From a virus (Duplodnaviria > Caudoviricetes): DNA of 61,494 bases. A program made the position numbers and the translations under genes. Shown here piece after piece: positions 6,001 to 61,494 of this stretch. Where the stretch lies: positions 1-61,494 of IMG/VR virus record IMGVR_UViG_3300030099_003489. One strand, written 5' to 3'. The stretch's first letter is position 1; the number at the start of each line of letters is the position of its first letter. The notes beneath the pieces are model-generated. The model saw only the letters and a list, made by a program, of their open reading frames with translations. It did no database searches and was not told the origin of the DNA.

Positions 6001-6050
6001 TCGGGAGTAGTATGTAATTTTGAAATAAACCCCGGATTATCGTTCGACAT
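3..6050 (-). CDS. Long tail fibre / receptor-binding protein, partial (>=2016 aa, runs off left edge; absent from ORF track)
   Basis: ATG at 6050 overlaps the upstream stop (TAATG) and reads MSNDNPGFISKLHTTPDARIVDGTDNIHSG. Spot checks at ~4440, ~2280 and ~10 are open in the same frame. It contains fibre-type repeats (IAADAVTSAKIADDSIDSEH, GAIDNAKVS, ATADQT). Continuity was not checked codon by codon. Confidence 0.8.
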   Translation of the reverse strand, partial: MSNDNPGFISKLHTTPDARIVDGTDNIHSGIINALNEATAGNRTVSGFNITQSNASVSYTKYVVAAGKVFRDGLLVDISNATLTTSVGPRSGNDWYAMIVVNSSNALAIRVDAQTRSTASVSNLTAGDIPVAIVKYVANSADDLINRPVQFLGHSQTTQGLSIINSGSETVRLNAAGTITKGGATLTLPSSTGTIALTSDIEYTSAIPNATASQTGLATSTQITKLDGIEANATADQTKSDINTLYSWSTDPEDGATADQTDTEIETAYNNRVPQVSSAERTAGNSTAIKRFTPADIKSMIDTHQTDTNTDVDVSLANLKTRLASNMGDNFQIGSNAAHTATFAGGLIIGGNLTVNGTTTTISSNTLAVGDNIIVLNNDVTGTPSQNAGVAIERGSANNVDIRWNESSDRWEFTNDGTTYYNLPITSELANPFVHPLHGTTDIDTSGAEIVDAISTNDTGHIIAMSKRTLTLADLGYTGATDANKYVHPNHSGDVTSSADGATTIANNAVTSAKIADSAITNAKINNGAIDNAKVSNSAAIAQSKISGLTSALSGKEPSLTIGDGLDRTNATLKVDIDGLTIENGMDRSADFIMYDDATNGLRRINPANLFSKLIASDIPDISATYRATATKLVDADVSNTAAINADKIANGTTNKVFTSTLKTKLDGIAASATVGADWSSNVTNISVTNAQLAGSIANSKLVNSGVTLNGNTLNLGGSLTLDTDDFAEGSNKYYTDERVDDRVNALITDGEGITTTYDDSAGTLTVDAEVATSSNRGVASFSSDHFVLNSGNVAIKDSSITNQKLAGNIAQSKVTDLVSNLASKAPVANPVFTGSITIGDASLTEAELELIDGVVGTLTTTELGYLDGVTSPIQTQLNAKLESVAIADLTDNVSLTTAVNNSSSHSHIPTARAVKDYIFSQEIKSYDLKLAQNSGNAKIRLEENTGDLTNFIDIDGGLDISLNVDPTNRHIQINSTSKGHVASASYNQGTLTLTHRDGTTTTATIPDSTTDAHGLMTDDQFDKLAGIEEQADVTDKANVVASLGLLDESDTLLIGDAGNDTTVRVRGNLFVDGTTTTINQTEINVQDALVFEGATSDDHETTLRIIDPTADRTISLPDVTGTIVTTGDTGTVSSGMLASSSVITSKINSGAISTGKLAASAVTTAKIADDAVTGAKIDFIDDSIGVTSTHIMVADGTDYNNVAVSGDATLANDGTLTIANLAVETGMLANLGVTTAKIAADAVTSAKIADDSIDSEHIVDGAIDTAHIGNNQVTVAKISGLSDLGSGTVISSAERTKLSGIETSADVTDATNVAAAGALMDGDFTSNGFLKRTGAGSYTVDTNTYLTSLAVTGLSDINQLEQNLASITDDHAGLVTAKAVKAYVDSIPGGVGGMSFVLEDGDGTELTIANDKEIKFVEGGLIDINWTDVSDGSDADPYDLTFTVDNDLANYSNTNSDFTTATALTNATAATAITGKALTNLDTSSGGTVAATDTILAAFGKLENRVALNDAKVTNTDVNVSETNLRSRLTDITESVTIGDGTDVTLTTSGALVVTGNLTVNGTTTTLDTTNLAVEDKNIVLASGNSASGVLDGTGFTFEGGSSDDITLQTASNVLELKLGSNYGSMKAGTFTGNLTGDVTGNADTATLATSVTVSANNSTDETVYPLFVDGETGTQGAETDTGLTYNPSSGLLTVGGLTTGGTVQYGNLSDGSITVTAFESTLTNGATLVPTSAAVKTYVDAQVDTVDSLGEMSNVTLSNVAQGHIITSDDSGAFSNRTLTAGTNVSITNASNGAITIASTDTTFTAASNNGLVLSGTEFSIDDPVNTNITLMSSGADGSATNPAQRTANTADQLLVWDDSAGEWAYISLAHLSDFAVDNGGAGGIKTFKTISVSGQDDIVADASADTLTISAGTGLDITTTANTDTLTFNVDVSDFMANGSNNRILTATGADAMNAESTFTYDGAGVMKIDHSDRVTVSLDGVKTSDATFAQIAAANDGDSVASIAFNRVGADD

Positions 6051-6388
6051 TAACTCACCTCCAAACTAACTGTAAATGTAATCGTATCTGCCGAAGGGAT
6101 TACTCCTGTATTTGTGAAAGTAACTCTACTCAAGAGTTTATCCCCTGATGTCTTGAATATTCCCAACTCAGAAACACCTTGACTACCTACTTGTGCGCCT
6201 GTAAACTCAGCAGTCCAAACCAATTCTGAACCTATTACAGAAGGAGTTACTACTTTACTAGCAACCACAGCATCTAATTCCGTTTGACTGGCCGCAGTAT
6301 CCCCTCCTCCGTTTCCTATTTTTACTGTAGTGTATTGTGCCGCAATATACGCCAACGCAATGTCCTCACTTCCCTCATTAACTATCAT
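6050..6388 (-). CDS. Small tail-tip/fibre-attachment structural protein
   Basis: 112 aa, beta-rich, with an ELGIF...LLSRVTF motif reminiscent of tail-collar/baseplate fibre anchors; lies between the hub and fibre genes. Confidence 0.55.
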   Translation of the reverse strand: MIVNEGSEDIALAYIAAQYTTVKIGNGGGDTAASQTELDAVVASKVVTPSVIGSELVWTAEFTGAQVGSQGVSELGIFKTSGDKLLSRVTFTNTGVIPSADTITFTVSLEVS

Positions 6389-9300
6389 TCTACTGTACCT
6401 CCATAATCATCTTGTTCATAGAACTTGTCTCCATAACTCTTCTTAGTCACTGTACTGTGTTCAAACCCAACTTCTTCTGTAAAGCCTACCAAATCATCAA
6501 AACCCATGTTAGAATTATAGGACAATGCATTCGATGACCCTGTTACCACATAGGAAAGTCTTACGTTTTTTATATTAATAGCATCAGAAAGATGTTTACC
6601 TGCTGAAATCTTCATAGAATCCTTCTGAAATAAGGACGAAAAACCATCAGATTGCTTAGTATTCAACTCGCTTAGTCTTTCAGCAATTGACTTGTCAAAC
6701 GTACCCACTGTCATAGTCAAAACCCCCGTTAAAACATTAGTTATTTCAAATACTATGTAGTCATCATTTGGAATATCATGATTTGGGAAATTTAATCTAA
6801 CTATGTCTCCTGCTTCTAGTAATTCTAATCCTTGTTTATGCACTTTTATCGTAATTTTACGATGTTTCTTGTTGTGTAGTTTCAATAATTCAACTGCTCT
6901 AATTTCTGCATCAGTCTTCGTTTTTATTGTTGGGTCTACTTCTTGAATTACTCTAGTTTGAGTGTTTGTAGACCTCTCTAATTCATATTTTATCCTATCA
7001 CCTATGATGACTGCTTTGTTAGCAGTATCGAAAAGAGAAGTGTTATTTTCAACAGAAATAAGTCTATCCGATTCTGCGTATGATAGTGCATATTTGCGTA
7101 AACTACTCGTATCTTCTATGTTTCTTGCACTAAACTTACCGTTTCTAATGTTGTAGTCCAATCCGTTCTTAACCGCTAGAGCATTAATGGCAGTAAATAG
7201 GTTAACATCATCGAATTTTAACGCAGAAACGTATGTTTTCTTGTTTATCTTGATTAGTTCGTCATGTTGTATTGGAGTGAATTTTAAGTTAGTTGTGAAG
7301 GTTATAGTTTGAGAGGAAATACCCTGTATTTCACCTACCAAATGTCCATCATGTGTGTACAAAACATCTCCCGCAGAAATGTCTTCTGGGGTAGCCGAAC
7401 AGACTACTGTGTTAGAGGTCGCACTAGACACAATATTGCCTGTGGGTGTGATAAAACTACGTAAATCATCATATTCTAATCCTACTCCTTTGACTAGGTT
7501 TTCTATCTCATCGTTAACGTTTGAAGCAACAGTAAAACCTGTACCGATATGGCATTTTTTGATGTTTTTTAGTTTAGGTCGCCTACTTAGTGCAATATCA
7601 AAAACTTCACCGAATGACACTACACCATTGCCAAATAATTGCCCGTCAAATTTCATGCCCAAACCCGGTATTTTAGTGAAATTTATACTTGTATCGAAAG
7701 CAGTAGATGAATCTCTATCTAAGGGAAAGAAGTCTGTGAATGTTATATTCTTTACAGAGGAATTTAGGCCATCCGTGACGTTCATTGTCTTCTGAACCAA
7801 CGTGGTTCCGGTTCTCTTGAATTTGTGTGCGGCTTGAGTTGGCTCCCTCACATCAATAGTAGAATTATCATAGTTCATATGACCAGATTGTGTAGTATAA
7901 CCATCATTTGTCAAAGTATTTTCAGTCTGTGGGACTCCATCAACATCCAACAGTAAGAACATTTGATACAGGCTCTCTCTATAATGGTGTACTGCACCAG
8001 ATACGCTATCTGTATCTGCTCCAGATTCCCCAGTAAGGAAACTGCTTCTGGTAAACCTACTAACAGGCTCCATGACATTGAATCTGATGGAGTTTTCTTC
8101 ACCGTTGAACGTTACCTCTGATGGACGCATGAGTCTAAATTTGTGGGTTGAAGAGAAAATCGGTCTTAATGGTACATCTATCTTAATTGTGTGAGTTTCA
8201 TGATTACTTATTGTAGGTGCAGTTGAGACTGTATGTGACGTTATCCTAGTAATGGCTCTAGGGGCATCAATCCTAGTTGAGTTTCTCAAATCGCCGCCAT
8301 TAGCCTTAGACTCGCTAACTAGATAGTATCCTGTGAGATTTGGTAAGAAACTGAGGAAAGTGTGTTTACTGGAATTGTTCAAGGTAAATACCATAGTGTC
8401 TCCTATGCTTGTATTAGTTCCATTTGGAAAAGCCAAAGAGGTATCTGTAGCACCAACCACATAATTGCTTCCACCAGAAGTTGCCGCCTTTAGTTGAAAT
8501 ACTGGTTTTATTGCCATTTGTGCGGATACGACTAGTCCTTCATTGGCGGCATCAGATGCAAACTCAGTATGATGATTTTCTTGAGTATCTGTGGAAATTG
8601 CCTTCTTTTCGGATAGGAAATGTGATTCAGTTCTAGTTCCTATCATAGCAACTGTATTGTTAGCGTCATACTCCGCTACCTGCACGTTTCTATCATGTTG
8701 GTCTAGGTTAGCGTTAGTTGCTTCTGCCACGTAATCAACGTAATTTGCATTAGTATCCAACGCCAATGGTGCGCTAGTTATCTCTATCGTACCGGGGTCA
8801 ATCGTGTTGTCTGTCATTGCAACCTTTACGTCTTTGAAAACACCGATGCATCCCTCATATGGATGAGCAAATGGATATGTTCCATAACCTAGTCCGTATT
8901 TGTCTTGATGACTGATTGTGGTTCCTGAATCAGCACCGAATTTAGCACCTACAAGTGCATTTATCACTCTGGATGTATGAAGCCAATTAGTATTTTGATT
9001 TGCCCAATTATCCGGGTGATGAAATGGAGATATCTCTTTATTCTCATATGTAGAATCATCAGACAATTCACCTACGATTAACGGTAGAATTATGTTATGA
9101 GCGGAGAAAGCCTCTCCATTGTCTTCTAGATTCGCAAACTCAAATATTCCAGTATGAGTGAAAGGTCTAGTAATGTATACGTCAGTAAATCGGAAGTCAT
9201 GTCTTCGATTTGACCTATTCACAGTCATATGGTTAGTACTGGATGATGGTTTGCTTATCTTATCTAACAAGAAGGATTGGTTAGTATAGACATAGAATGG

Positions 9301-12300
9301 TTGAACACCGTAGTATTTTATCGTCCCACCATCATCATATCCATCAAATTGCCAAATATCATTGTATATTTCTGTGTGTCCGGTTCCGCTTAACGTTGAT
9401 GCATCTATGAGATTATTGTTACCAGAATCAGTATTGAAAGAACCAGAAGAACCGCTTTCCTTTACTGCTATGAAACCGTTTATCTGGTCTGGTGAACCAG
9501 TAAGTGTGGTGTGTTCTCTAAACGGATTTGACCCCATGTAGTCAGTAGTGTAGAACATATCTCCAAGTGTTTGTGTGGTAATGTTAGTACTAGACACATT
9601 CACATTCGCACCATCGGTTTCCCTTAGTTGAATTGTTTTACCAGTCAACTGGTCCGGGTTCTCAAACATTACATAATCAAAATACGGAATGGTGGGTATG
9701 GATTCTGATGCTAGTGTATTCTCCAAATCTACAGGATTAAAATGCCAGTCAAAGGTAGCCTCAACTAGTCTGATAACACCAAATCTAGAAATTTGATTAG
9801 TGGTTTGAGTTGCACTACTAATGCTTACAGATTCAAAGTTATTTTCAGATTTAGCAGTCTGTCTAGTAGTACCAACATATTCCTCATGTATGACAGTATC
9901 TCCTACTTCATCCTCATCCGACTCCAATAACATAGAGAAGTCTTCATAGTTTAGAGTATGATATCCAAGATTGTTATTTCTATTGTTAGAAGCGGGTAAT
10001 AAGTCACCAATGCCAAACCAATCGTAGTAGTCTGTTCTAGAGTCAATTTGTTCAAATGCTTCGTAATCAATATCGTATTCAAACGGGTCGCCTGTGTTCA
10101 AAGCATTAGGATAATACGATTTTATCAGGTTCGGAGTATCCGGAGTAGTAGACGAATCGTATGGTCCATAGAAATTACCAAGATAATTCCACCCATCTAA
10201 CGTATTGCTTCCATTTATTGGTCTATTAGTGTTTGAACTAGTGACGCTAATTGTTGAACCATCTGCTCTCACTCCATATCCTACTGCATATCCTTGTATC
10301 TTTTGAGGACTAACTCCAAAGTTATAGATTGAATCGTATTTTCTGTTTATCGTTCCGGGGTTTATCTTTTGGAAGTCCCAGTATCTTATGCAGTTACCAT
10401 CAATGTGGTCATTGTAGGAATTACCTACTCCTAATTTATGCACGAAGCCTCCAGTGTTCAAATTAGCATTTACGAAATACAATGAGCAATTTCCTCTTGT
10501 ATCAGAGGAATTAGATGCTACTCTTCCCATGACCACAGGGAAAGTAGGAGCAACACTGATAGTTGTTCCACCCTCTATCTTTTCATTTATCGTAACTACA
10601 TCAAAGGTTTCTTGCTTTACTGTACCAACGCTATTATGTGTGACACTAACACCATTTTCATTTCCTATTTTTATTGCAAAATTAGAGTCATTTGCATCTA
10701 TATTCTTGGGTGATGTAATGTCATATCCCAATGTTTTATCTTTGAGAACTCCACCAGTGTTTGATGTACCTACTAATTTGTCAGTAGTAAATGTGCTATT
10801 GGTATAATATGCATTAGCACTATCTGGAGAAATCAATCTAACTCCACCATCAAAGACTAGTCCTCTACCACTAACGGATAAGTCTGCAATACCATCTGTA
10901 ATATTTGGATTGCTACCAAGTGCCTTAGTCCCTGTAATGTATGTAGTGTGAGTAGTATCCGTGCTTAGATAAGTATACGGATGGTAGTATTTTAGGTTCA
11001 CACCTGAGTTATTGAAGGTAACTTGAGGCGGTCTGAATAGGGTAATTTCTTTGGGTGATGTAGTAAATGACTTAATTTCACCAACATACTTTCCATCGTG
11101 ATTCAGTAATATACCGAAAGGCTTGAGAGTTATACCACTAGTAGTTCCCCCGTAGGTTAGAACAGAACCATTTACACTAATAGTTCCAACAGAAAGTTCT
11201 GTTACGTTATTGACAATAGGGTCATGAGATGAGTGATGAATATCTGATAATACCGCAGTATTCTTATTTATTGTTTGTGAAATTAACTTGGATGTCTCAT
11301 CTCTGCCATTAATGGAGTAGGTAGTCATACCCATTTCTGTCTTACTGTTTGCATTTTCTATTATCCCATCAAATGCAGTATCACTTATAGCGTATCCTCC
11401 AGAGTAATAATAAAATCTATCTTTGGACTCATTGCTTCTTTGATAGAAAGTTCTTGTAGTATCTTGTATTTTAGCAAATTTGTTGTTTTTGTCCGTAATA
11501 TCTAGAAGATTATTGTGAGAAGTATTAGTGACAAAAACTAACCTAGCATCATTTAGTTTGGCATTGTTTTTATCAATAGTAACACCATCTATCGTAATTC
11601 TATCAGTAGTGTAGTCTATCTCAGTATCTGAAACTAAATCGTAATTCAAGACACCTGTGTATGGTGGAACAAAAAGTGTCTTCTGACTTATTGAATGAAC
11701 ATTAGAACTACCACTCCAAGTCGTTGCTGATTTTAACTTAGAATCTTTAACCTTTATTTTTTGAGTACCACCGGATTGAGCAAATACGGTGTGAACCACA
11801 TATAAATAACCATCAACTTCAATAATGTCATCAGTGCTTAATTTATGTCTAAGGTCAAACTCTTTGCTTATCTCCTTCATTTCTATGTTATCCGCAGTTC
11901 CAGTAACACTACTTGCCTTACCCTCTACAGGGTAATATTTCATGTTTGAATTGTATATGTTTCTTTGGACAAGTAATCTATCTTCTTCCTTTACTTTCAA
12001 GTGTGCTAGACCACTAGAATCCAACATAGAAAATGACGCTAATTGACTCATTTTATTTCTAGGGCTGTTTACATTAGCACTTTGCATCAAAGGTAACTTA
12101 TTATTCTTGAAATCACCCTTTTCAAATGTAATATATTTAGCAGGGCCAGTTAGATTTCCATCTAAACTATTAGAAGTATCACTAATCAAATTGCCAGTAT
12201 GTCTATGCATTCTAGGAAAACTGGTATTCCATTTATGTGCATCTGTAATTTCGTAATCATCTGTTTTGTTAGTATCTACAAGTACTGCATCTAACTTGTC

Positions 12301-13491
12301 ACTACCTAAATTTAGAATTGTATCATTAAATCTACTCTGAGTTCTAAACACTACATTAGTACAAGTCTTTCCTACTTTGTTAACTTGATTTCCAGAAAAA
12401 GGATTGATGGTTTGTCTAGCAAAATCAAGAAAAAATCTGTAGTCTGAACCACTAGTGTATTTTTGTTTTATATTTCCTAGAAGACTTCCATCTACATTGC
12501 TCCACAGTGATTGTCCTTCAACTAACTTTTCCCAATTAGTTTGTGATAATTGATAGTACTTGCTTGTGCTACCTGCTTCAAATTGTGCAAGTGTTCCAAC
12601 TATATCTGTGATACTAGTAGTGGTGTTTTCCCACCATCTCAAGTGAGTAGCGTTGTACTTGGTCATGTAATCTAATTGATTTTTCTCATCCAGTCTATCA
12701 TTATAGAAATACCAAGTAGGCAAACTACAAATATTTACTCTATCGTATTTAGGTGTAGTAGCACTAGTATCTCCTCTCAATCCATAACTAACAGCAACGA
12801 CACTTGTATCTGTTTTTGCTGGACCCTTGTATATCTCAAATTTGGTGTTCTTTGGTATGGCTGTAGGATATGATGGGCTAAATTCCAATCCATCTCCAAA
12901 TGTATCAAATGTGGTTATTCTAGTTATTTTAGCAAAGTGTGGTCTAACTTTATCATTACCTGCTTCAACTATCTGTGGATTAATTAGAATAAAATAATCA
13001 TAGTTTTCAACGTCTAGTCCTATCTCATCACTGTTAGGATAATTGCTAGTTGAATATATTAATCTTCTATTTGTCTCACTATTTGTTGTTGATATCTCTG
13101 AATCCATGACTTTTATTTTAAAGGCAGGAGTTTCTTCATTACAATTCGCATAACTTGCTAGGTTTTCGTTAGTAGGTAGAATTCTATTTCCTATCCTATC
13201 TGTTCCATCATTTGATATTGAGATAGCCCTAGAAGTATTTCTGATTTCCATAAAGTTAGCAGAATTTTTTAGAACGTCATGTCCTGTTTGATTATGTTGT
13301 ATGTTATTTTCATACTTTAGATTATTTTGAACAAAAGTAGGATTGACAGAGACACTAGTGTACGCTTTACTTTCATGAGCCGTGTGACTATCATAATCAT
13401 ATGTGCTTCCATCTACTATGATATCTTCATGTATACCTGAATTTAAAGGAAAAATTACTCGTCCAAAGTTTTCTTGCGTACCCATGTTCAA
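6385..13491 (-). CDS. Giant tail-tip/baseplate hub-like protein (2368 aa)
   Basis: S/T/N/G-rich; C-terminal DPTIKTKTDAEIRAVELL...LEAGDIVRLNFP resembles tail hub/central fibre proteins; located downstream of the tape measure. Confidence 0.65.
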   Translation of the reverse strand: MNMGTQENFGRVIFPLNSGIHEDIIVDGSTYDYDSHTAHESKAYTSVSVNPTFVQNNLKYENNIQHNQTGHDVLKNSANFMEIRNTSRAISISNDGTDRIGNRILPTNENLASYANCNEETPAFKIKVMDSEISTTNSETNRRLIYSTSNYPNSDEIGLDVENYDYFILINPQIVEAGNDKVRPHFAKITRITTFDTFGDGLEFSPSYPTAIPKNTKFEIYKGPAKTDTSVVAVSYGLRGDTSATTPKYDRVNICSLPTWYFYNDRLDEKNQLDYMTKYNATHLRWWENTTTSITDIVGTLAQFEAGSTSKYYQLSQTNWEKLVEGQSLWSNVDGSLLGNIKQKYTSGSDYRFFLDFARQTINPFSGNQVNKVGKTCTNVVFRTQSRFNDTILNLGSDKLDAVLVDTNKTDDYEITDAHKWNTSFPRMHRHTGNLISDTSNSLDGNLTGPAKYITFEKGDFKNNKLPLMQSANVNSPRNKMSQLASFSMLDSSGLAHLKVKEEDRLLVQRNIYNSNMKYYPVEGKASSVTGTADNIEMKEISKEFDLRHKLSTDDIIEVDGYLYVVHTVFAQSGGTQKIKVKDSKLKSATTWSGSSNVHSISQKTLFVPPYTGVLNYDLVSDTEIDYTTDRITIDGVTIDKNNAKLNDARLVFVTNTSHNNLLDITDKNNKFAKIQDTTRTFYQRSNESKDRFYYYSGGYAISDTAFDGIIENANSKTEMGMTTYSINGRDETSKLISQTINKNTAVLSDIHHSSHDPIVNNVTELSVGTISVNGSVLTYGGTTSGITLKPFGILLNHDGKYVGEIKSFTTSPKEITLFRPPQVTFNNSGVNLKYYHPYTYLSTDTTHTTYITGTKALGSNPNITDGIADLSVSGRGLVFDGGVRLISPDSANAYYTNSTFTTDKLVGTSNTGGVLKDKTLGYDITSPKNIDANDSNFAIKIGNENGVSVTHNSVGTVKQETFDVVTINEKIEGGTTISVAPTFPVVMGRVASNSSDTRGNCSLYFVNANLNTGGFVHKLGVGNSYNDHIDGNCIRYWDFQKINPGTINRKYDSIYNFGVSPQKIQGYAVGYGVRADGSTISVTSSNTNRPINGSNTLDGWNYLGNFYGPYDSSTTPDTPNLIKSYYPNALNTGDPFEYDIDYEAFEQIDSRTDYYDWFGIGDLLPASNNRNNNLGYHTLNYEDFSMLLESDEDEVGDTVIHEEYVGTTRQTAKSENNFESVSISSATQTTNQISRFGVIRLVEATFDWHFNPVDLENTLASESIPTIPYFDYVMFENPDQLTGKTIQLRETDGANVNVSSTNITTQTLGDMFYTTDYMGSNPFREHTTLTGSPDQINGFIAVKESGSSGSFNTDSGNNNLIDASTLSGTGHTEIYNDIWQFDGYDDGGTIKYYGVQPFYVYTNQSFLLDKISKPSSSTNHMTVNRSNRRHDFRFTDVYITRPFTHTGIFEFANLEDNGEAFSAHNIILPLIVGELSDDSTYENKEISPFHHPDNWANQNTNWLHTSRVINALVGAKFGADSGTTISHQDKYGLGYGTYPFAHPYEGCIGVFKDVKVAMTDNTIDPGTIEITSAPLALDTNANYVDYVAEATNANLDQHDRNVQVAEYDANNTVAMIGTRTESHFLSEKKAISTDTQENHHTEFASDAANEGLVVSAQMAIKPVFQLKAATSGGSNYVVGATDTSLAFPNGTNTSIGDTMVFTLNNSSKHTFLSFLPNLTGYYLVSESKANGGDLRNSTRIDAPRAITRITSHTVSTAPTISNHETHTIKIDVPLRPIFSSTHKFRLMRPSEVTFNGEENSIRFNVMEPVSRFTRSSFLTGESGADTDSVSGAVHHYRESLYQMFLLLDVDGVPQTENTLTNDGYTTQSGHMNYDNSTIDVREPTQAAHKFKRTGTTLVQKTMNVTDGLNSSVKNITFTDFFPLDRDSSTAFDTSINFTKIPGLGMKFDGQLFGNGVVSFGEVFDIALSRRPKLKNIKKCHIGTGFTVASNVNDEIENLVKGVGLEYDDLRSFITPTGNIVSSATSNTVVCSATPEDISAGDVLYTHDGHLVGEIQGISSQTITFTTNLKFTPIQHDELIKINKKTYVSALKFDDVNLFTAINALAVKNGLDYNIRNGKFSARNIEDTSSLRKYALSYAESDRLISVENNTSLFDTANKAVIIGDRIKYELERSTNTQTRVIQEVDPTIKTKTDAEIRAVELLKLHNKKHRKITIKVHKQGLELLEAGDIVRLNFPNHDIPNDDYIVFEITNVLTGVLTMTVGTFDKSIAERLSELNTKQSDGFSSLFQKDSMKISAGKHLSDAINIKNVRLSYVVTGSSNALSYNSNMGFDDLVGFTEEVGFEHSTVTKKSYGDKFYEQDDYGGTVE

Positions 13492-54238: not shown

Positions 54239-54311
54239 AAAAATGGGCTGGAATTTTTTTACCACTAGCGAAATTCTTTTTTTTGGTTTTTTTCCATTCC
54301 CAGAATAAAAT

Positions 54312-54465
54312 CCACAGGGGGTATACTAGGGGGTATCTCCACAGGGGGGTACTCTAGACACCTCTACAGGGGGTATTCCTAGCGCACCCGGCGGAAAATA
54401 GTGCTTTTTGTAGTCCCACAGGGGCAAAGTGGGGGTTATTATCCCCCTACAGGATACTCAGGGGA
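54312..54465 (+). repeat. Cluster of (CAC/TAC)AGGGGGTA-like G-tract repeats
   Basis: G4-6 runs at 54317, 54329, 54344, 54369, 54421, 54431 and 54461 in non-coding DNA. Confidence 0.75.
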
Positions 54466-54528: not shown

Positions 54529-54538
54529 ACCATATGGT
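54529..54538. repeat. ACCATATGGT palindrome, copy 1
   Basis: Perfect 10-bp palindrome; right arm tgtga-g-ACTTTGT-g-tcaca. Confidence 0.9.
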
Positions 54539-54630
54539 GTGAGACTTTGTGTCACAGTGAGAGGAACTGGTTCATGGGGTGGGAGGAGTCTTGGGTCATC
54601 GGAGATGAGGTGTAAGACCCTCAAATCCGC

Positions 54631-54906: not shown

Positions 54907-54982
54907 AGTATCCGTGGAGCAAACCACCTAAATGTAAAGGATAGTGGGGTCGGGGCTATCGCCCCTTCGTCACTTCGTTCCG

Positions 54983-54992
54983 ACCATATGGT
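54983..54992. repeat. ACCATATGGT palindrome, copy 2
   Basis: Hairpin arms on both sides; divergent TATA-like boxes. Confidence 0.9.
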
Positions 54993-55043
54993 TGCAGACG
55001 CTAGTACTACAACCCTATATGATTAGGTAACTGAGGTACAGGC

Positions 55044-55358
55044 ATGAGTGAAGAAATAGAATGGGAGACTGTAAAGGGCGTAGACTTGAAGGATGCTGAT
55101 GGGGGTCCATTGAGAACTAGGATAGTGTACACCCATAGTGAGGACTCCTTAGAAGAATTAGTTGGGTTCTTTGGAATAAGAGCGCAAGAGGCATTGTGGA
55201 AGTATAGAGACACGACCCTACCTGATATGGAGAGCGTGAAGATGGGACATAACAGCAAGGAAGAGGTAGAGGTAATTCAGATGGCAATGAACATCACATG
55301 GCAGATGGAGAGATTCCTAAGATTACCTAAGTATCCTAATGAGAGGTGGGAACCATGA
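55044..55358 (+). CDS. Small hypothetical protein
   Basis: 104 aa with GAGGT RBS. Confidence 0.65.
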   Translation: MSEEIEWETVKGVDLKDADGGPLRTRIVYTHSEDSLEELVGFFGIRAQEALWKYRDTTLPDMESVKMGHNSKEEVEVIQMAMNITWQMERFLRLPKYPNERWEP

Positions 55359-55528
55359 CAACATACAAGATAATACGATTCAGGTTTGAAGGGAATGACA
55401 GAGTTATCAAGAGAGGACTTACTCTTGAAGAGGCTCAAGAGCATTGCAAAGACCCGGAGACATCCGGTAGTACTTGCTCAGACTTGAAGAAGCGTGGTCA
55501 GTGGTTTGATGGCTACGCGGAAGAGTGA
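55355..55528 (+). CDS. Small viral protein (GLTLEEAQEHC.DPETS...WFDGY)
   Basis: ATGA overlap; followed by a GC-rich hairpin at 55537-55569. Confidence 0.65.
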   Translation: MTTYKIIRFRFEGNDRVIKRGLTLEEAQEHCKDPETSGSTCSDLKKRGQWFDGYAEE

Positions 55529-55597
55529 ACTCAAAGGACGGGAGGGCATGCCATAGGCTCTCTCGTCCCACATGGGGTACTTTTACTAGAGTCTAGT

Positions 55598-55607
55598 ACC
55601 ATATGGT
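55598..55607. repeat. ACCATATGGT palindrome, copy 3
   Basis: Hairpin arms 55576-55600 and 55605-55634. Confidence 0.9.
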
Positions 55608-55853
55608 TCCAGCACTTTGTAGCGATAAAGAACCTTGATATTTGGTTTGGAGATACCATGCTATGAGTTTATGCTATTTTCTGTTTTATTTAGGGGGTAG
55701 TGGCAAAATACCCATAATGTTGTAGTTTGTATTTTCATTATCTCCTATTTAGCATGGTATCTCCCTTCACTTGATTGACGGTCAAGTGGTCTGTGAGTCT
55801 GAATGTGCCCGAAAGGGTCGGAATGGAGTCATTCAGTCAGAGAAGTTCCAGTA

Positions 55854-56513
55854 TCAGTTGGAACCTCCCCTTGTTGGTGCAGGTGTGTAGGTGGTTGCCA
55901 TCACCATTACACCGTCTATTTCGGTCAGCGTTATGTCGGACCCGTTGTTCTTTGGGTCTGCGGTTACTAGGTATCCGTGTGTTGCCTTGCCACTAGCAAG
56001 TTCGGTCCAAGTTCTCTTGACTCTCCCCACGTATGAGTCAGTTTCTTTCTTAGCAAGGACTGCGATAGCCGCGTCTTCGTCCTCGTAAGTGGATAGTTGT
56101 ACTCCCTTCTTGTCGTGATTATGGGTGAGTAGGTATCGGTTGTTTGATATGAACTCTACCCAGTTATCGTATCTGCTCTGTATAGAGCGAACCGACTGGT
56201 TTACTGCGTTTGGTAGGTTGGAAACCTTACCCATTACTCTACTGCATAGTCCACCAAGAACAGATTGCGTCTTGGGAATTACAGATAGGGTGTTCTCCAA
56301 CTGGTCTACAGCAAAAGTTAGATTCATTCTCTGCGAATCGTCTGCTTTCTTGAGGTCTGCATCTACTGCCTCCCAGTATTCTTCCAACCTGTTGAGTTGT
56401 TCCTTTGCTGAACGGTGGTAAGGGTCATCTTCGTTGTACTCTCCCTTAGCCAACCATTCGTTCGTCTGGTTAATCCTGTCTTCTATTTTCGTTAATTTAC
56501 TTTCATCAATCAT
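55854..56513 (-). CDS. Hypothetical protein (start reassigned to MIDESK)
   Basis: GGAG RBS; TATA-like CTTTATATTTGGG upstream at ~56577-56590. Confidence 0.65.
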   Translation of the reverse strand: MIDESKLTKIEDRINQTNEWLAKGEYNEDDPYHRSAKEQLNRLEEYWEAVDADLKKADDSQRMNLTFAVDQLENTLSVIPKTQSVLGGLCSRVMGKVSNLPNAVNQSVRSIQSRYDNWVEFISNNRYLLTHNHDKKGVQLSTYEDEDAAIAVLAKKETDSYVGRVKRTWTELASGKATHGYLVTADPKNNGSDITLTEIDGVMVMATTYTPAPTRGGSN

Positions 56514-56640
56514 GTTATCGTTCTCCGTTGTTTGTGCCTCCAGTCCGACCCTATCGAACACCTGTAGAGCCAACAACCCAAATATAAAGCGAGGTCTGTT
56601 ATATGGCTTACAAAGTAGCCAAGAGTATGCTTCGCATACG

Positions 56641-56650
56641 ACCATATGGT
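56641..56650. repeat. ACCATATGGT palindrome, copy 4
   Basis: Right arm GGTTGTA-aa-ACGCTGTA-cg-TACAACC. Confidence 0.9.
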
Positions 56651-56804
56651 TGTAAAACGCTGTACGTACAACCCCCCGGAGGGCGGAGAGGTGGTCGTGG
56701 CATACCTTCACCTCTCCGTTTCACCTTGTCGAAGGCTACTTCCTCCTTTGCTTCACTCTAGGTTTTCTTTGTCCTCCGGTTGTGGACTACCTAGACCGTG
56801 CGAC

Positions 56805-57017
56805 TCAGATACTGGCTAGATACTTGAGATAAGCACCGTGCCACCTGTTGTGTTTGAATGCTTCGTTGGTGTTCGCTAATTCCCAACCAATCAAACCTAT
56901 CTCCACTGGTGTCAATTGTCTTCCTGTAATTTCTGTGAGTTTCACAGTGAGAACCCAGTTCAGATATTCAAACTGACATCTTGTTAACCTCGGATGGTCT
57001 TGCGGGTACTCGGTCAT
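56805..57017 (-). CDS. Small hypothetical protein (start MTEYPQ)
   Basis: GGAGGT RBS. Confidence 0.55.
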   Translation of the reverse strand: MTEYPQDHPRLTRCQFEYLNWVLTVKLTEITGRQLTPVEIGLIGWELANTNEAFKHNRWHGAYLKYLASI

Positions 57018-57018
57018 T

Positions 57019-57324
57019 CTACTGTACCTCCCTAAGATGGACATTGATTGAACAACCCTTCTCCCCGTCATTGTTGATAATAAGATAAAGCCGCATCAAG
57101 TCCCATACTTTCTTCTGACCTATCAGTTGATTCATTTGGACAAACTGAGTTTCTTTCGTCATGTTTACGTCCGTCCCATAGTTAACAAAAATGGCATCGA
57201 GTTTTTTCTGTGTCTTTTCAATATCCTCTTGTACAATCACCATCAAATCGTCATGTGCATCACGGTATCCCTCTTTGTACCCCTTTTCTTGGTAGTATTC
57301 ATATTCTTCTTTACTGACCATCAT
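57019..57324 (-). CDS. Small hypothetical protein
   Basis: 101 aa with GGAGG RBS. Confidence 0.6.
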   Translation of the reverse strand: MMVSKEEYEYYQEKGYKEGYRDAHDDLMVIVQEDIEKTQKKLDAIFVNYGTDVNMTKETQFVQMNQLIGQKKVWDLMRLYLIINNDGEKGCSINVHLREVQ

Positions 57325-57539
57325 TCTTCCTCCTTGAATCCTGCGGGTATCGTGGTTATGTCATCAAGATGAAAGAGAATACTTTCAGGGTGTCGAGAAC
57401 TTATGCTATTCTTTAACAACCACATTAGAATATTTATCTGTCCCATGCAATAAGTCATGTGAGATATTCTCTCTTCATCACGGTATTCGTCTGCTTTCGC
57501 TTCTATTTCTTCTATCTTATCTAGTAATTTTATCATCAC
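57321..57539 (-). CDS. Small hypothetical protein
   Basis: 72 aa with GGAGG RBS. Confidence 0.6.
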   Translation of the reverse strand: MMIKLLDKIEEIEAKADEYRDEERISHMTYCMGQINILMWLLKNSISSRHPESILFHLDDITTIPAGFKEEE

Positions 57540-57548
57540 TTTTCCTCC

Positions 57549-57695
57549 TTAATTCCCATTGTTTTCCTTAATGCGCTCAACTAGTGAGACAGCAAAGCAT
57601 CTTCTGCAAATGTGGTTATCATGTGGGAACGTAACTGAGAACTCTCCCTTGAGCCAGCATGCATCACATATTCGTGGTTCTGGGTCTTCTTTCAT
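57549..57695 (-). CDS. Zn-finger micro-protein, 48 aa (not in ORF track)
   Basis: MKEDPEPRICDACW...HICRRCF; TATA-like box about 25 bp upstream. Confidence 0.6.
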   Translation of the reverse strand: MKEDPEPRICDACWLKGEFSVTFPHDNHICRRCFAVSLVERIKENNGN

Positions 57696-57751
57696 GTCAA
57701 CCCCTAACAAAACCCAAACTTAACCGGGTAGTCTATACGAAAGTTCTTGCT

Positions 57752-57761
57752 ACCATATGGT
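57752..57761. repeat. ACCATATGGT palindrome, copy 5
   Basis: Hairpin arms on both sides. Confidence 0.9.
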
Positions 57762-57802
57762 TCGGCACTTTGTAGCCAAAGGAACCCCAGAGGACAGGAT
57801 TT

Positions 57803-58009
57803 TCACCTGCGCCTCTGTAGTTTCTTGTATCTGATGTGCGCCTTGCGTATCTCCTTCTGAATTCTACCCACTGAATGTCTTTTCAGGGTGGGGGTCTTAT
57901 CATTAGGGTGGTTTTCGATGTGTTCTCGTATCTTCTGATTGAGATTGGCTCTTTCAGTCTCATCTCCTATGTGAATCCTGATGTTTTTTGCTGTTCCTCG
58001 ATTCGTCAT
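57803..58009 (-). CDS. Small basic protein
   Basis: 68 aa with GGTGA RBS. Confidence 0.6.
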   Translation of the reverse strand: MTNRGTAKNIRIHIGDETERANLNQKIREHIENHPNDKTPTLKRHSVGRIQKEIRKAHIRYKKLQRRR

Positions 58010-58213
58010 CTACTCATCACCTGCAATAATAGCGTCAAGTCTCTTGAGCATGGCTTCAACAATCTGTAAAGTCTCTACAGGGTCATCACTGTGTACTTTC
58101 ATACTCTTGATTATCAAAACATGGTCAGAACCGGACTTAGAATGTCCGATGTCAATAGATGTCTTGTACGGTCGTAGTTCTTGCGTGGCTTGGGGTGTTA
58201 TCTCCATGCCCAT
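58010..58213 (-). CDS. Small hypothetical protein (start reassigned to MGMEITPQ)
   Basis: TATA-like CTCATATTTGGG just upstream. Confidence 0.55.
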   Translation of the reverse strand: MGMEITPQATQELRPYKTSIDIGHSKSGSDHVLIIKSMKVHSDDPVETLQIVEAMLKRLDAIIAGDE

Positions 58214-58261
58214 ATCCCATACAACCCAAATATGAGGGTACATTACGCTCAAAGTGCTAGT

Positions 58262-58271
58262 ACCATATGGT
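58262..58271. repeat. ACCATATGGT palindrome, copy 6
   Basis: Right arm GGTTGTTGA-ACGCTCGTA-TTAACAACC. Confidence 0.9.
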
Positions 58272-58464
58272 TGTTGAACGCTCGTATTAACAACCCTCCG
58301 AGGGTCGAGGGTCTGGGGATTAACCCAGATAAAACACTCCGGTATCCAACCCGGAAAGAGAATTTTAAAAATTGGTACATTTTGTACCAAAAAAGATCAT
58401 TGGGTGAACTAAACCCTTTCTCTTTGCTGTGTCCCTCGTTAGTTTGTGTGGGGGGTCAACCTGT

Positions 58465-58926
58465 CTACGACTTGTCTTCCTCCCCGGCTACTCTCTTAGC
58501 GCGGTTTATGAGTATGTCAAGAACTTGCTCCCCCGTTAGTTCCCTCCCGGCTTCTTTCGTGCCGTCTTTCTTGGTCTTCGTGTTTGCCTTGAGGAATCTC
58601 TTCCCCTTCGCATCTGAGTCATTGTATGCGGAAACATCGAAGCAAGCGTTCAGTAGTTCAAGCAATCCTGAGAAGTCAGTATTGATTTTCTCAGAATTGA
58701 ATGCTGGAGGCTTGTAAGAGAACAGAGGAATATCCTTCTCGTCCTTTAGGAGTTGGTTGCACACGTTCAGAACGTGCTTGGTTATTCCTTCCTCTATCTT
58801 CAAGGTGAAGTATAGATACTCTTCCTTCCCCTTTACCCCGGCTACCTTGTGTGTGGCTAGGAAAGCACTGAAGGCCGCAATTAGCCCCAATGCTTTCTTA
58901 TCGTTTTTTGGTTCGTATTCTGTCAT
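58465..58926 (-). CDS. Hypothetical protein (start MTEYEPK)
   Basis: GGAG RBS; TATA-like CTTACATTTAGG upstream. Confidence 0.65.
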   Translation of the reverse strand: MTEYEPKNDKKALGLIAAFSAFLATHKVAGVKGKEEYLYFTLKIEEGITKHVLNVCNQLLKDEKDIPLFSYKPPAFNSEKINTDFSGLLELLNACFDVSAYNDSDAKGKRFLKANTKTKKDGTKEAGRELTGEQVLDILINRAKRVAGEEDKS

Positions 58927-59020
58927 TGTTATCGCTCCTGTCGCTGTGGTTTTACCCCCCACAACAAATATTACCCTAAGTGCCTAAATGTAAGGTCACT
59001 GTGTACTAGAGTTTTGAGTG

Positions 59021-59030
59021 ACCATATGGT
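59021..59030. repeat. ACCATATGGT palindrome, copy 7
   Basis: Left arm (minus strand) GGTCACT-caaa-ACTCTAGTA-cac-AGTGACC. Confidence 0.9.
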
Positions 59031-59234
59031 ACGATACTTCGGAGTATGAGAATTCTAATCGGGAAGGCCGTTTGAAATCGCCGGACTCCCTTTAAGTTTG
59101 GGCGGCGGGTTCTCAGGCTGTAGAAAAGTCACTTCAAACGTGTTTATTTTCTAGCCATAGTTTAAACATCAACACACAAAAGTCACAATTAGTTGTTTAC
59201 TCAAATGGCAACCTTTACTAATGAGCCTAGTCGT

Positions 59235-59645
59235 TCATCTCATATTAATATAATATTAGTATAGAATTGAATATCAGTATCAGTATTCGATAATCAATAT
59301 CATTAGCCAGTCAAAGAGTGAGTCAATATGACTCACTTTCTCAATATTCTCATCGAAGTGAGAAAATAGGAGGTGGGCGTAGACGGACAGAAGGGACGAA
59401 TTAAAGAAGAAAAATGATATAAAATATCATATATTCTCATATTCTCATATTCTCTCTTCTTCTACTACCCCTCTCTTCTTCTTCTTCTTCTTCTTCCCCT
59501 GAGAGGGGTGAGAAAATGAGAAAATGAGAAAACCAACAAATCTGAGAACTGAAAATGTGGAGCAGTATTTTGTTTCCCAAAGTGTTCTCAGTATTCTCAC
59601 TGGGTGAGAAAACCACCCAAATGAGAATATTAACTATAATTCTCG
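59235..59645. repeat. Origin-like region: AT-rich tract plus inverted arrays of ATTCTCA/TGAGAA repeats around a (CTT)n tract
   Basis: ATTCTCAT tandem copies at 59433-59454, (CTT)n at ~59475-59496, TGAGAAAA x3 at ~59509-59532, further copies to 59645; 9-bp inverted repeat at 59317-59337. Confidence 0.55.
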
Positions 59646-60713
59646 CTAGGACATCGAAGACAGAAGTAGCGGTACTTCGTAGATGACCTATCGTTCAATG
59701 AGGTTTTAGACCTGAATAAAAATGTGAAAAGATACCGGAGTTGTTGCAGGTAGTTTAGTGACTACCGAAGAGAGAACTTGCTTGATTCTGAATGGTTAAG
59801 CAACTGTGCGCTATAAAATGGATTCAATCCCATCAGTAGTCGTTCTCTACACATGAAAGAGTAACAAAGTCACGGACCCTTCTCTTCGGAGCGGGCTGTA
59901 AGTAGTGTTTCTTCCTACCAGAAGATATTGCGAAAGCATATGTCTACTATGGTTACTGTTTGCAAACTGTATAGTCGGAAGCAGTTCATTCCCTCCAGTG
60001 GTCAGGGGCATAGCACCCAAGCATTCCTCATGAAATATTTATCTAACATTCATCCCTTCGGGGATAATGGAGGTATGCTAGGTAACAAGTTCTGCTTGTT
60101 TCAAAAACGGATAATTCTTCGTTGTTTCTGTATTGCTACGCATTGACTACCTACTAGCATTTGGGGTTCGTTACCCATCCGTTGCCTCCACTCACACTCT
60201 ACCCCTAGAGTCGGGTTTGTCAAATAAAAAAACTGGAAAGTGTACATCATCAATCATATTACCGTAGACAAAGGGAGTTTCGTTTTCTTCCTCCAGTTCC
60301 CGATTTCTAAGGATATCACAGATGCTTTGCATCGCCACTTAATATAGTCTCGATTACATTATACTCATAAGTCGGTTTGAATCCGACAGAGTAGGAGTTT
60401 TACAACGAATAAAAAAAGACAAATTCTTCATACACTAGTTGTTGAGGGGTTCTGGGTTACCTCAAGTCTTTTCTCTTACTAATCACACTCAAAGTCGGTT
60501 TATCACAAGTCTTTGACATATTTTCCGACCGACTAATCAAATTGAGCAAGGTTGTATCAACTATGATGGTAACATCGTAGTAAAAAGACGAACTGCGTTG
60601 AGACATTTTCTTAGCAATCAAACTCCGCAGGAAAGACACTGGCCTGTTTTTCGATACAAGGTACTACCTGTCTTCCTTGCTAATCACACTCCTATTACGG
60701 AGGTAATAAAAAT

Positions 60714-61494
60714 ATGAATGGAACACAAGAACAGAAAGAAATATGGAAAGAAATGGAAAATGGTAATGACCACATGATGGTGTATGCTGGAGCCGGAACA
60801 GGCAAAACGTATACCATTGTTGCAGGTGCGAAACTAGTTGATGGAAAGAAGGGTTTTCTTTGCTTCAACAAGTCAATCCAAACTGAACTAGATGCTAAGT
60901 TGCCTGATGATTGTGACGCAATGACGTTTCACAGTCTAGGTTACTCAGCAGTTAGAATGCACAAGAGAAACTGCCGAATGGATGGTAGGAAGACTTGGAA
61001 TATCGTCAAGGATATTCTAGGTGAGAACTACCAGTCGGTATCTCAGGTGGTCAAACTAATCAGTCAACTGAAGAGCAGTATGGCAGATTGGGAAGACAGG
61101 GATATGATTGAGTATATCCTTGAGAGATTTGACATAGAGTTTGATAGTGTCATTGACAAGAATGAGGCGATTGCCCTACTACCAATACTCAAGGAGTCAT
61201 GCAAGGATGCAACCACAGTTGATTTTGATGATATGGTTTGGCTACCAGTCGAATTGAATCTACCAGTGAAGCACTACGATGTTGTCTTTGTTGATGAGGC
61301 TCAGGATTTCAATGAGGTTCAGCGAAGATTAATTCTCAAGGCTTGTAATGGTGGTAGAATGATTGTAGTCGGTGACCCGAAGCAAGCAATCTATGGTTTC
61401 CGTGGAGCAGATTCTGCTAGTATGGATTTGTTCAAGAGGGAACTTGAGAACAGTAGCAGGAGTGTATCTAACTATACTCTATCCATTACATGGA
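60714..61494 (+). CDS. UvrD/Rep-like SF1 helicase, partial (not in ORF track; runs off right edge)
   Basis: MNGTQEQ Q-motif, AGAGTGKT Walker A, TFHSLG, VFVDEAQD Walker B, VVGDPKQAIYGFRGAD; GGAGGT RBS. Confidence 0.92.
   Translation, partial: MNGTQEQKEIWKEMENGNDHMMVYAGAGTGKTYTIVAGAKLVDGKKGFLCFNKSIQTELDAKLPDDCDAMTFHSLGYSAVRMHKRNCRMDGRKTWNIVKDILGENYQSVSQVVKLISQLKSSMADWEDRDMIEYILERFDIEFDSVIDKNEAIALLPILKESCKDATTVDFDDMVWLPVELNLPVKHYDVVFVDEAQDFNEVQRRLILKACNGGRMIVVGDPKQAIYGFRGADSASMDLFKRELENSSRSVSNYTLSITW

Follow-up and report, generated by a model that had tools for sequence, protein, structure and literature searches.

The PeSLs of T4-like phages are small cassettes of a promoter and a stem-loop that lie in ORFan-rich regions, where recombination shuffles genes (Arbiol 2010, PMC2839356; Comeau 2014, PMC4122927). 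In the halovirus HGTV-1, a TATA-like region together with an inverted repeat precedes most open reading frames (ORFs) of one genome arm (Sencilo 2013, via PMC3950731), a motif that its authors likened to PeSLs (PMC3950731). Sulfolobales viruses are described as carrying shared regulatory sequences before early or anti-defence genes (PMC11065993). Here we describe a repeated element in a 61.5-kb stretch of viral DNA, the IMG/VR record IMGVR_UViG_3300030099_003489, analysed over its full 61,494 nucleotides and referred to hereafter as the window (linear; completeness estimate 66%; G+C 39.8%). The element is centred on the palindrome ACCATATGGT, and hairpin arms face outward from it. With moderate confidence, we regard it as a PeSL-like boundary cassette of an archaeal virus, which would mark the borders of transcription units among small variable genes.

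The arms had been noticed in an earlier reading of the window alone (the original prediction), which listed nine of them, took them for a functional structure rather than a plain operator, and named integron attC sites, HUH/REP substrates and N4 hairpin promoters as analogues. The observation was confirmed, and across homologues the confirmation is strong. Its interpretation finds support in part: the arms are structured and more than an operator, but they are not attC sites, REP/HUH substrates or N4 promoters. The site at 54529, the long left arm at 54948-54985 and the composite left side of the site at 56641 were absent from that reading, as were an archaeal host, a TATA-like box abutting the foot of the arm at a fixed distance from the ATG, and the core as a joint between cassettes.

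Distribution of the palindrome

ACCATATGGT is a perfect 10-bp palindrome present in seven copies (Table 1), all between 54529 and 59030 and none elsewhere in the 61.5 kb. Its 8-base core CCATATGG was observed seven times where 0.70 were expected, with a maximum of three in 100 shuffles, and all seven copies extend to the full palindrome. Related loci (80) were fetched from IMG/VR by way of the UvrD-type helicase, whose gene starts at window position 60714. The exact palindrome was present in 3-13 copies in 61 of the 80, clustered upstream of the helicase gene. In each of the five complete relatives (92-101 kb), which carry 6, 7, 5, 8 and 11 copies, every copy falls in one cluster. The clusters span 2.5-5 kb and their gene content differs among loci; the 10-bp core is invariant while its surroundings vary. 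In 57 of the 61 loci the array begins, after an A/T-rich run, with a conserved first site, CAAAG(C)CATATGGT. The left arm of this first site is shrunk to CAAAG (for example at 3712 in L055).

A scan of IMG/VR returned at least 120 stretches with the two-armed form, and the full palindrome precedes 518 of 722 matches to the arm pattern GGT-N-CTTTG-N-ACC in 1.46 Mb. When genome contigs were scanned, 57 of 58 stretches held one palindrome match each, in unrelated organisms, and these single matches are read as chance. Five two-armed sites of the window's virus family were found at 2127-4176 of a 14.7-kb contig (L125) binned in a Flavobacteriaceae metagenome-assembled genome; this is probably a mis-binned viral contig and not host evidence.

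Pairing, tip and folding strand of the arms

All nine arms of the original prediction read as it gave them, at the positions listed there. From the homologues 762 arms were taken, of which 719 distinct ones were kept. At least five consecutive Watson-Crick pairs, counted from the G of GGT, were formed by 36% of these 719 arms compared to 3.6% of 4118 other ATGGT sites. When arms exchanged their 3' halves, pairing fell from 37% to 10.8% (maximum of 20 swaps, 13%), which places the pairing far beyond chance and bears out the earlier statement that the stems differ yet stay complementary.

Covariation was also examined in 424 arms chosen regardless of pairing, with a single ACC in range. Rungs 4-9 were Watson-Crick paired in 78, 56, 50, 37, 39 and 41% of these arms, and in 43, 28, 31, 26, 27 and 29% after partner swap, with several pair types at each rung. 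Covariation across homologues, whose absence the prediction had named as refuting it, is evident at rung 4. The 3' half pairs with its own 5' half and not with that of the sister arm (78% vs 30%, rung 4), and the arms within one genome differ throughout the stem. In an ungapped alignment of 39 arms with 20 nt from foot to foot, 81% of the cells were paired compared to 68.8% when shuffled (0 of 500 shuffles reached 81%), although these arms had been preselected for at least four pairs and the count is partly circular for the fourth. The covariation score of this alignment was 0.327 compared to 0.139. A covariance model (CM) from the 39 relatives' arms, tiny and preselected for stems of at least 4 bp, placed six window arms among its top seven matches. 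Such a model had been proposed in the original prediction, and it recovered eight of the nine arms listed there at E <= 10, but with weak E-values (0.064-3.5).

Across the family the conserved tip reads CTTTG, and it always lies on the strand leading 5' to 3' outward from the core. This tip was present in 93 of 103, 204 of 241 and 127 of 133 stemmed arms of three context classes (85-95%), while CAAAG was found in 1, 2 and 0 arms of the same classes (~1%). The distance from the core centre to CTTTG is 8-18 nt, with a mode of 10. The prediction was right that the arms share an apex, but its AC-N3/4-GTA is not the general tip; AC(T/G)(C/T)T..GTA is a local window variant of the family CTTTG. Of the 424 CTTTG-bearing stemmed arms, 348 place the TTT in the apical loop of the minimum free energy (MFE) fold, 128 of them as a C(TTT)G triloop. 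The mean MFE was -6.4 kcal/mol compared to -3.3 kcal/mol with the interior shuffled.

Isolated mismatches in otherwise perfect stems were unequal between the strands: G:T outnumbered A:C (18 vs 6), G:A and A:G together outnumbered T:C and C:T (28 vs 1), and T:T outnumbered A:A (12 vs 5). The outward strand was the more stable one in ~70% of arms, with little difference between gene-end-facing arms (71%) and promoter arms (72%). Gene-end-facing arms often have a C(GAA)G mini-hairpin behind them, in the same strand. In DNA, C-closed triloops of this type, C(TTT)G and C(GAA)G, are particularly stable. Because the mismatches are strand-asymmetric and the stability bias is alike at gene starts and gene ends, the sequences point to an outward strand that adopts a single-stranded state on either side of the core. 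This mismatch spectrum and strand bias would be expected neither from a plain duplex operator nor from a simple terminator of incoming RNA.

Gene context and predicted promoters

Sequence logos showed that the ACC foot is directly followed, across the family, by yTAWnWWW. In 103 of 477 stemmed arms the ATG of an ORF of at least 40 codons lies 26-31 nt past the foot; position -1 is C or T and positions -10 to -16 are A/T-rich. The boxes in the window include TACATTTA, TATATTTG, TAAGTTTG, CATATTTG and TATATGAT. In the archaeal promoter consensus, an A/T-rich box lies ~25 nt upstream of the start, the initiator is pyrimidine-purine and the start is at the ATG. Both the logos and the offset peak of 26-31 nt agree with this, and the boxes are very probably archaeal TATA promoters that give leaderless or short-leader mRNAs. 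The ends of two metatranscriptome contigs, at 56559 and 58965, both fall 20 nt beyond the final base of a TATA-like 8-mer. This holds in both cases in which a contig reaches a promoter, and it is a weak hint. Other metatranscriptome contigs cover cassette genes. No contig of runs X19 or X20 spans any arm or core, and nothing is concluded from this.

Arms were sorted by a crude ORF-context classifier. Stems of at least 4 bp were found in 73-75% of gene-start arms and 69% of gene-end arms, and CTTTG in 89% of both. Two-armed sites (n = 348) comprised 142 tandem (end/start), 44 divergent and 29 convergent sites and 133 in which one side was unclear. In examples of convergent sites, oligo-T runs lie just before both arms.

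The commonest cassette genes belong to a paralogous family of all-alpha proteins, with 139 ORFs in 59 loci and 1-5 in each (examples are 7975-8448 in L007 and L029, which has five copies). A good AF2 model of this family (pLDDT 87.8) matched no PDB fold at E <= 0.001, and Pfam has no family for it.

Cassette joints

Homology end-points from all locus pairs (n = 311 distinct) were concentrated at the palindrome, with 28% within 20 nt of the core centre compared to 4.7% of random positions, and 14% within 10 nt compared to 2.4%. The starts of homology blocks accumulate at -10 to 0, their ends at 0 to +20. Two loci, L065 and L070, carry two cassettes in swapped order, and their homology blocks start and end at cores. 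Relative to L055, L056 contains a ~300-bp cassette inserted exactly within the core of a site that is intact in L055, with CATATG on both sides and the new inner arms reduced to CTTTG. A tyrosine recombinase (PF00589) was found in none of the five complete relatives, whose virus-encoded genes were covered, and in 14 of 14 control genomes; such an enzyme could be encoded by the host. Neither a Y1 HUH transposase (PF01797) nor a serine recombinase was found in any of the five.

The virus and its presumed host

The window is a fragment of a tailed archaeal virus, uncultured and marine, that fits the group-B magroviruses. A minus-strand morphogenetic module fills it from 1 to ~54000, with genes for terminase, portal, protease, capsid, tail-tube and an ATP-dependent ligase as well as giant ORFs without a family match. 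The best cultured relatives of the portal are haloarchaeal tailed viruses, siphoviruses among them (28% identity, E 2e-58), and a Methanomassiliicoccales virus. All five complete relatives encode a split family-B DNA polymerase (PolB) and a TFIIB zinc-ribbon (TFB-like) protein; the window sequence stops short of the polymerase, and the split PolB is known from the complete relatives only. A split PolB is given as a trait unique to group-B magroviruses, which have halovirus-like morphogenetic genes alongside it (Philosof 2017, PMC5434244). The assignment was judged by these traits, a split PolB in five of five relatives and a portal nearest to haloviruses. Because the portal is halovirus-like and the relatives encode a split PolB and a TFB-like protein, we conclude that the host is archaeal.

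The viral TFB/TFIIB-like protein has 295-339 aa, with a zinc ribbon and a weak cyclin repeat (for example 17629-18618 in L011), and its gene lies in the replication module of the complete relatives. TFB or TFIIB is unmentioned in the main text of some magrovirus-related papers. The main text of some magrovirus papers likewise contains neither 'promoter' nor 'palindrom', and in the main text of one of them 'motif' refers to a helix-turn-helix protein only. A literature search for the palindrome itself brought up cloning primers only.

A Bacteroidota or crAss-like phage, with promoters of the -33 TTTG / -7 TAnnTTTG type, had been suggested by the TAnnTTTG-like boxes and giant ORFs of the window. 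This candidate was rejected on account of the halovirus-like portal, the TFB-like protein and split PolB of the relatives, giant ORFs without a DFDxD motif, and a family-wide box after ACC that has no G. The promoters described in the crAss paper (bioRxiv 10.1101/2020.03.07.982082) are therefore irrelevant here.

Features of the window

The sites of the window are listed in Table 1, in which MFE (kcal/mol) and z refer to the arms folded as single-stranded DNA.

Table 1. Cores, arms and associated TATA-like boxes in the window, by site.
Site	Feature	Position	Strand	Remarks
0	Core ACCATATGGT	54529..54538	.	leftmost; adjoins A/T-rich run
0	Right side	54536-54558		short TGTGA/TCACA stem around ACTTTGT
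1	Core	54983..54992	.	between divergent genes
1	Left arm	54948..54985	-	GGTCGG...CCGACC foot, long loop; MFE -6.8, z -1.21
1	Left TATA-like TTTACATTTA	54938-54929	-	then ATG 54906
1	Right arm	54990..55014	+	z -1.50; best CM match, 17 bits
1	Right TATA-like CTATATGATTA	55015-55025		ATG 55044, 29 nt past foot
2	Core	55598..55607	.	between convergent genes
2	Left arm	55576..55600	-	faces end of + gene 55355-55528; z -0.45
2	Right arm	55605..55634	+	tip ACTTTGTA; z +0.25
2	Right TATA-like TTGATATTTGG	55635-55645		no ORF of at least 35 codons after
3	Core	56641..56650	.
3	Composite left side	56579..56640	-	small hairpin at 56625-56639
3	Left GGCT-ACTTTGTA-AGCC	56605-56620	-
3	Left TATA-like TATATTTG	56586-56579	-	RNA contig end 56559; ATG 56513
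3	Right arm	56648..56673	+	faces end of - gene 56805-57071; MFE -5.7, z -2.82
4	Core	57752..57761	.
4	Left arm	57727..57754	-	z +0.17
4	Left TATA-like TTAAGTTTGGG	57713-57703	-	then ATG 57695
4	Right arm	57759..57786	+	abuts end of - gene 57803-58009; z -1.75
5	Core	58262..58271	.
5	Left arm	58237..58264	-	z +0.55
5	Left TATA-like TCATATTTGGG	58235-58225	-	ATG 58207, 29 nt past foot
5	Right arm	58269..58295	+	faces end of - gene 58465-58962; z -2.35
6	Core	59021..59030	.	rightmost; right side without GGT...ACC stem
6	Left arm	58994-59023 (feature 58985..59023)	-	z -1.67
6	Left TATA-like TACATTTA	58992-58985	-	RNA contig end 58965
6	Left gene start	GTG 58962 or ATG 58926	-

A 15-bp perfect inverted repeat (55651-55665 / 55751-55765, ~85 nt apart) lies downstream of the TATA-like box belonging to the right arm of site 2, and no credible ORF is found there. 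Four iteron-like (C/T)(C/T)ACAGGGGG repeats lie directly left of the first palindrome, at 54311-54425; nearly all relatives checked lack them at this place. Two cassette products are putative DNA binders by eye, a protein of 68 aa whose N-terminus is RHH-like and whose tail is basic (57803-58009, minus strand) and a 48-aa protein with CxxC...CxxC (57549-57695, minus strand).

From the last palindrome to the helicase gene, 1.7 kb (59031-60713) are without an ORF of at least 60 aa. GAGAAAA/TTCTCA repeats occur inside this stretch at ~59420-59620, and it has no Rfam family match. A metatranscriptome contig at 59749-59903 has a depth of 187, at least ~6x that of any other RNA contig on the window, and the RNA from this region may be regarded as a candidate for an abundant non-coding RNA.

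Two giant ORFs, one exceeding 2016 aa and the other of 2368 aa, occupy 3-13491 (minus strand) at the tail end of the structural module. Neither has a Pfam or PDB sequence match, and one matches an unannotated PHROG family. No DNA similarity of the window to GenBank phages was found, no relatives were found for a 390-aa neighbouring protein, and PDB sequence searches with four window proteins gave no match. Among the small cassette proteins no Pfam hit was above the cut-off. Rfam gave no match near a gathering score, a tRNA search found none, and an Atlas search yielded no usable match.

Proposed function and alternatives

In the reading that we favour, each element consists of the 10-bp palindrome flanked on either side by an outward-facing imperfect hairpin, whose foot is GGT/ACC, whose stem covaries and whose apex is C-TTT-G. 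On the gene-start side the ACC foot would abut an archaeal TATA box, and the host RNA polymerase would, with high probability, start ~20 nt beyond the box, in most cases at the ATG or beside it, giving a leaderless mRNA. On the gene-end side the arm would merely follow a stop codon or an oligo-T run. The 10-bp core is likely to be the joint where, from one related virus to another, arm-gene-arm cassettes come to be inserted, permuted or replaced. This invariant core is most likely bound by a dimeric protein found across the family, for which it would be a putative operator. What the hairpins do is a more doubtful matter. Our best suggestion, a tentative one, is that they would act in single-stranded nucleic acid, either extruded DNA or RNA crossing the core; they might, just as tentatively, insulate neighbouring units or mark the joint.

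Several results weigh against this reading. Folded as single-stranded DNA (ssDNA), the eleven window arms (the nine of the prediction, 54948-54985 and 54536-54560) were weak, with MFE of -0.8 to -6.8 kcal/mol and z values of +0.55 to -2.82, below -2 in two of eleven and above -1.1 in five of eleven. The prediction had itself said that stems no better than shuffled controls would count against it; the stems pass that comparison across homologues, but the window alone would not carry the hairpin claim. In 17 near-identical arm pairs, paired positions had proportionally no fewer substitutions (21 of 282) than unpaired ones (7 of 160), numbers too small for a decision. A diverged lineage, L048, has six one-sided sites (3908-7765) of the form ACCATATG-CTTTGGCA-N-TATATAT, each after a T-rich run, with no stems and no second arm. 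These promoters, ACCATATG-CTTTGG without stems, look as if they work, and the hairpin is therefore not needed for the promoter itself. A terminator role fits poorly, since gene-end arms prefer the same outward strand as promoter arms and an oligo-T run often already precedes the gene-end arm. A single study, in two runs, yielded the RNA contigs, and contigs are no proof of where an RNA ends. To call the cluster genes 'early' is a presumption from gene size, position and analogy. Finally, the sequence shared at the joints is only 10 bp plus CTTTG, yet the breaks are precise. Precise breaks with so little shared sequence fit a site-specific mechanism better than homologous recombination of the PeSL type, for which ~100 bp are shared.

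Such a mechanism could be structure-specific recombination as in integrons, which we consider unlikely, if less so than the other alternatives. The ssDNA fold of an arm would be read by a viral or host enzyme and strands exchanged inside CATATG; arm-gene-arm cassettes would be captured, excised and inverted, with the first site behaving like attI and the promoters riding along. Break-points that stack on the 10-bp core despite unlike flanking arms would be explained, as would the insertion exactly in a core, with CATATG on both sides and inner arms cut to CTTTG. A palindromic crossover would allow cassettes in both orientations, as found at the 29 convergent and 44 divergent junctions among the 348 sites. 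The strand-asymmetric mismatches, the C-closed triloops at the apex, C(TTT)G, and the clamp, C(GAA)G, and the conserved first site in 57 of 61 loci agree with it as well. However, none of the five complete genomes encodes a tyrosine or serine recombinase or a Y1 HUH enzyme, and no circular cassette or excision product was seen. BLAST end-points stack on any short shared motif, so that the precision is partly built in, and archaeal or viral recombination over very short homology could yield the same pattern. In a bolder version, to which we give slightly less credence, magroviruses would run their own integron-like cassette system, with arms that fold as ssDNA, strand exchange inside CATATG, the conserved first site as capture platform, and a recombinase of an unrecognised family that is not tyrosine, serine or HUH.

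A plain double-stranded operator or upstream activating site, with a dimeric regulator on ACCATATGGT and a second contact at CTTTG, is less probable again. The complementarity within arms would then be functionless and kept, for example, by template-switch correction of quasi-palindromes. An invariant core amid variable surroundings, the weak hairpins of the window and the stemless ACCATATG-CTTTGGCA-N-TATA of L048 would suit such an operator, and archaeal viruses are known with shared repressor-site regulatory sequences before early genes (PMC11065993). Strong, arm-specific covariation argues against it, as do the strand-asymmetric mismatches and the convergent-gene sites, which have no promoter to regulate; a core-to-CTTTG distance of 8-18 nt suits a rigid protein poorly. 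The prediction's preference for a structure over an operator is upheld by the covariation and the one-strand mismatch bias (G:T over A:C), although the analogues that it named fail. One of these, a hairpin promoter as in phage N4, in which a special polymerase or the viral TFB-like factor would read an extruded hairpin and start at a fixed distance, is very unlikely. The elements are indeed limited to one gene class, the distance from foot to ATG is fixed, and a TFB-like protein is encoded in all five complete genomes. Against this, foot and start are separated by a TATA-like box whose spacing is the usual one in archaeal promoters, the non-template strand folds better, and arms are equally common at gene ends. 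No RNA polymerase domain or DFDxD motif was found in three large window ORFs (the window is a fragment, and the proteins are very divergent), the two largest of these having no PDB sequence match. The TFB-like gene, in the replication module, could not serve the first genes unless its protein were packaged. Replication or priming sites, where unwinding of the AT centre would expose the inner strands and hairpins of the outer strands would recruit primase or helicase, are the least likely of all. The symmetric layout with outward strands folding on both sides would allow it, and the array starts beside an A/T-rich run and, in the window, also beside the iteron-like repeats. However, the presence of 5-13 copies within 3-5 kb, one per gene boundary, speaks against such sites, as does the absence of the iteron-like repeats from relatives.

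Under the boundary-cassette reading, ACCATATGGT with CTTTG provides a sequence handle for finding the cluster gene class in any contig of the family. The element predicts leaderless archaeal promoters that can be tested in vitro, and it shows where variable genes are exchanged. Covarying, strand-biased hairpins with an invariant apex go beyond the PeSL model, and if they are recognition structures for recombination or regulation they would represent a new mechanism in archaeal viruses. Magroviruses are reported to be abundant and widespread in surface oceans, with presumed hosts that are uncultured (PMC5434244). Were the integron-like system real, the early-gene repertoire of abundant ocean viruses would be reshuffled by structure-specific, site-specific recombination.

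Comparison with known systems

Like attC sites, the arms are imperfect inverted repeats at cassette boundaries, with conserved ends, an interior that varies in sequence and length, and evidence of one-strand folding. The core boxes R'' and R' of attC are RYYYAAC ... GTTRRRY. The conserved ends here are instead GGT...ACC beside CATATG, without RYYYAAC/GTTRRRY, and the five complete relatives have no IntI-type recombinase, nor any other tyrosine recombinase, so that this analogue of the original prediction fell. Two hairpins flank a palindromic core here, compared to one hairpin per cassette in integrons; in addition, each cassette has its own promoter and the setting is an archaeal virus. The HUH/REP analogue fared no better. 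Copies of REP/BIME or IS200/IS605 elements within a genome are nearly identical in sequence, whereas the arms of one genome here differ throughout the stem, and PF01797 was absent from all five complete relatives. N4 hairpins have a 5-7 bp stem and a 3-nt loop, lie on the template strand centred near -12, and are themselves the promoter. What the two share is a small hairpin linked to a single class of genes that are presumably early; in the present case the arm is found upstream of a TATA-like box and not near -12, its foot is 26-31 nt from the ATG with the box in between, and it folds better on the non-template strand.

The closer relatives are the systems with which we began. HGTV-1 is also an archaeal tailed virus, and its motif precedes ~25 small genes as a hairpin and TATA box at a fixed distance from the ATG. 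Inspection of the HGTV-1 region showed a T-run, a TATA box and a single hairpin whose sequence is fixed, with no palindromic core and no sequence similarity to the present element; its stem sequence is conserved from copy to copy, whereas the stems here covary. The Sulfolobales viruses likewise have small single-gene units with the same promoter-containing sequence, and the flanking inverted repeats described there were proposed as repressor sites. Their cores of B recognition element (BRE) and TATA box are conserved in sequence, whereas here a variable stem ending in WACC takes the BRE position and the shared sequence is found 20-40 nt further upstream than the TATA box.

The PeSLs, as described for T4-like phages, resemble the element in being composite intergenic motifs, a promoter joined to a stem-loop, among small ORFan genes, and in both cases indels and replacements between relatives break at the motif. 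All three traits were found here: a composite of promoter and stem-loop, a region of small variable genes, and breaks at the motif. The promoter is of the archaeal TATA/leaderless type in place of sigma-70, and the element has a perfect 10-bp palindrome with two mirrored arms. The stems covary, compared to the conserved poly-G/poly-C of PeSLs, and ~15 bases are shared as opposed to ~100 bp. Arms also occur here where no promoter is needed, and for the stem-loop as a simple terminator, a PeSL trait, the strand preference of gene-end arms is unfavourable. We conclude that the element is of the same kind as the PeSL, HGTV-1 and Sulfolobales sequences, and that it is set apart from them by its palindromic core, mirrored covarying arms and invariant apex, and further by its strand bias and by how little shared sequence lies behind such precise joints.

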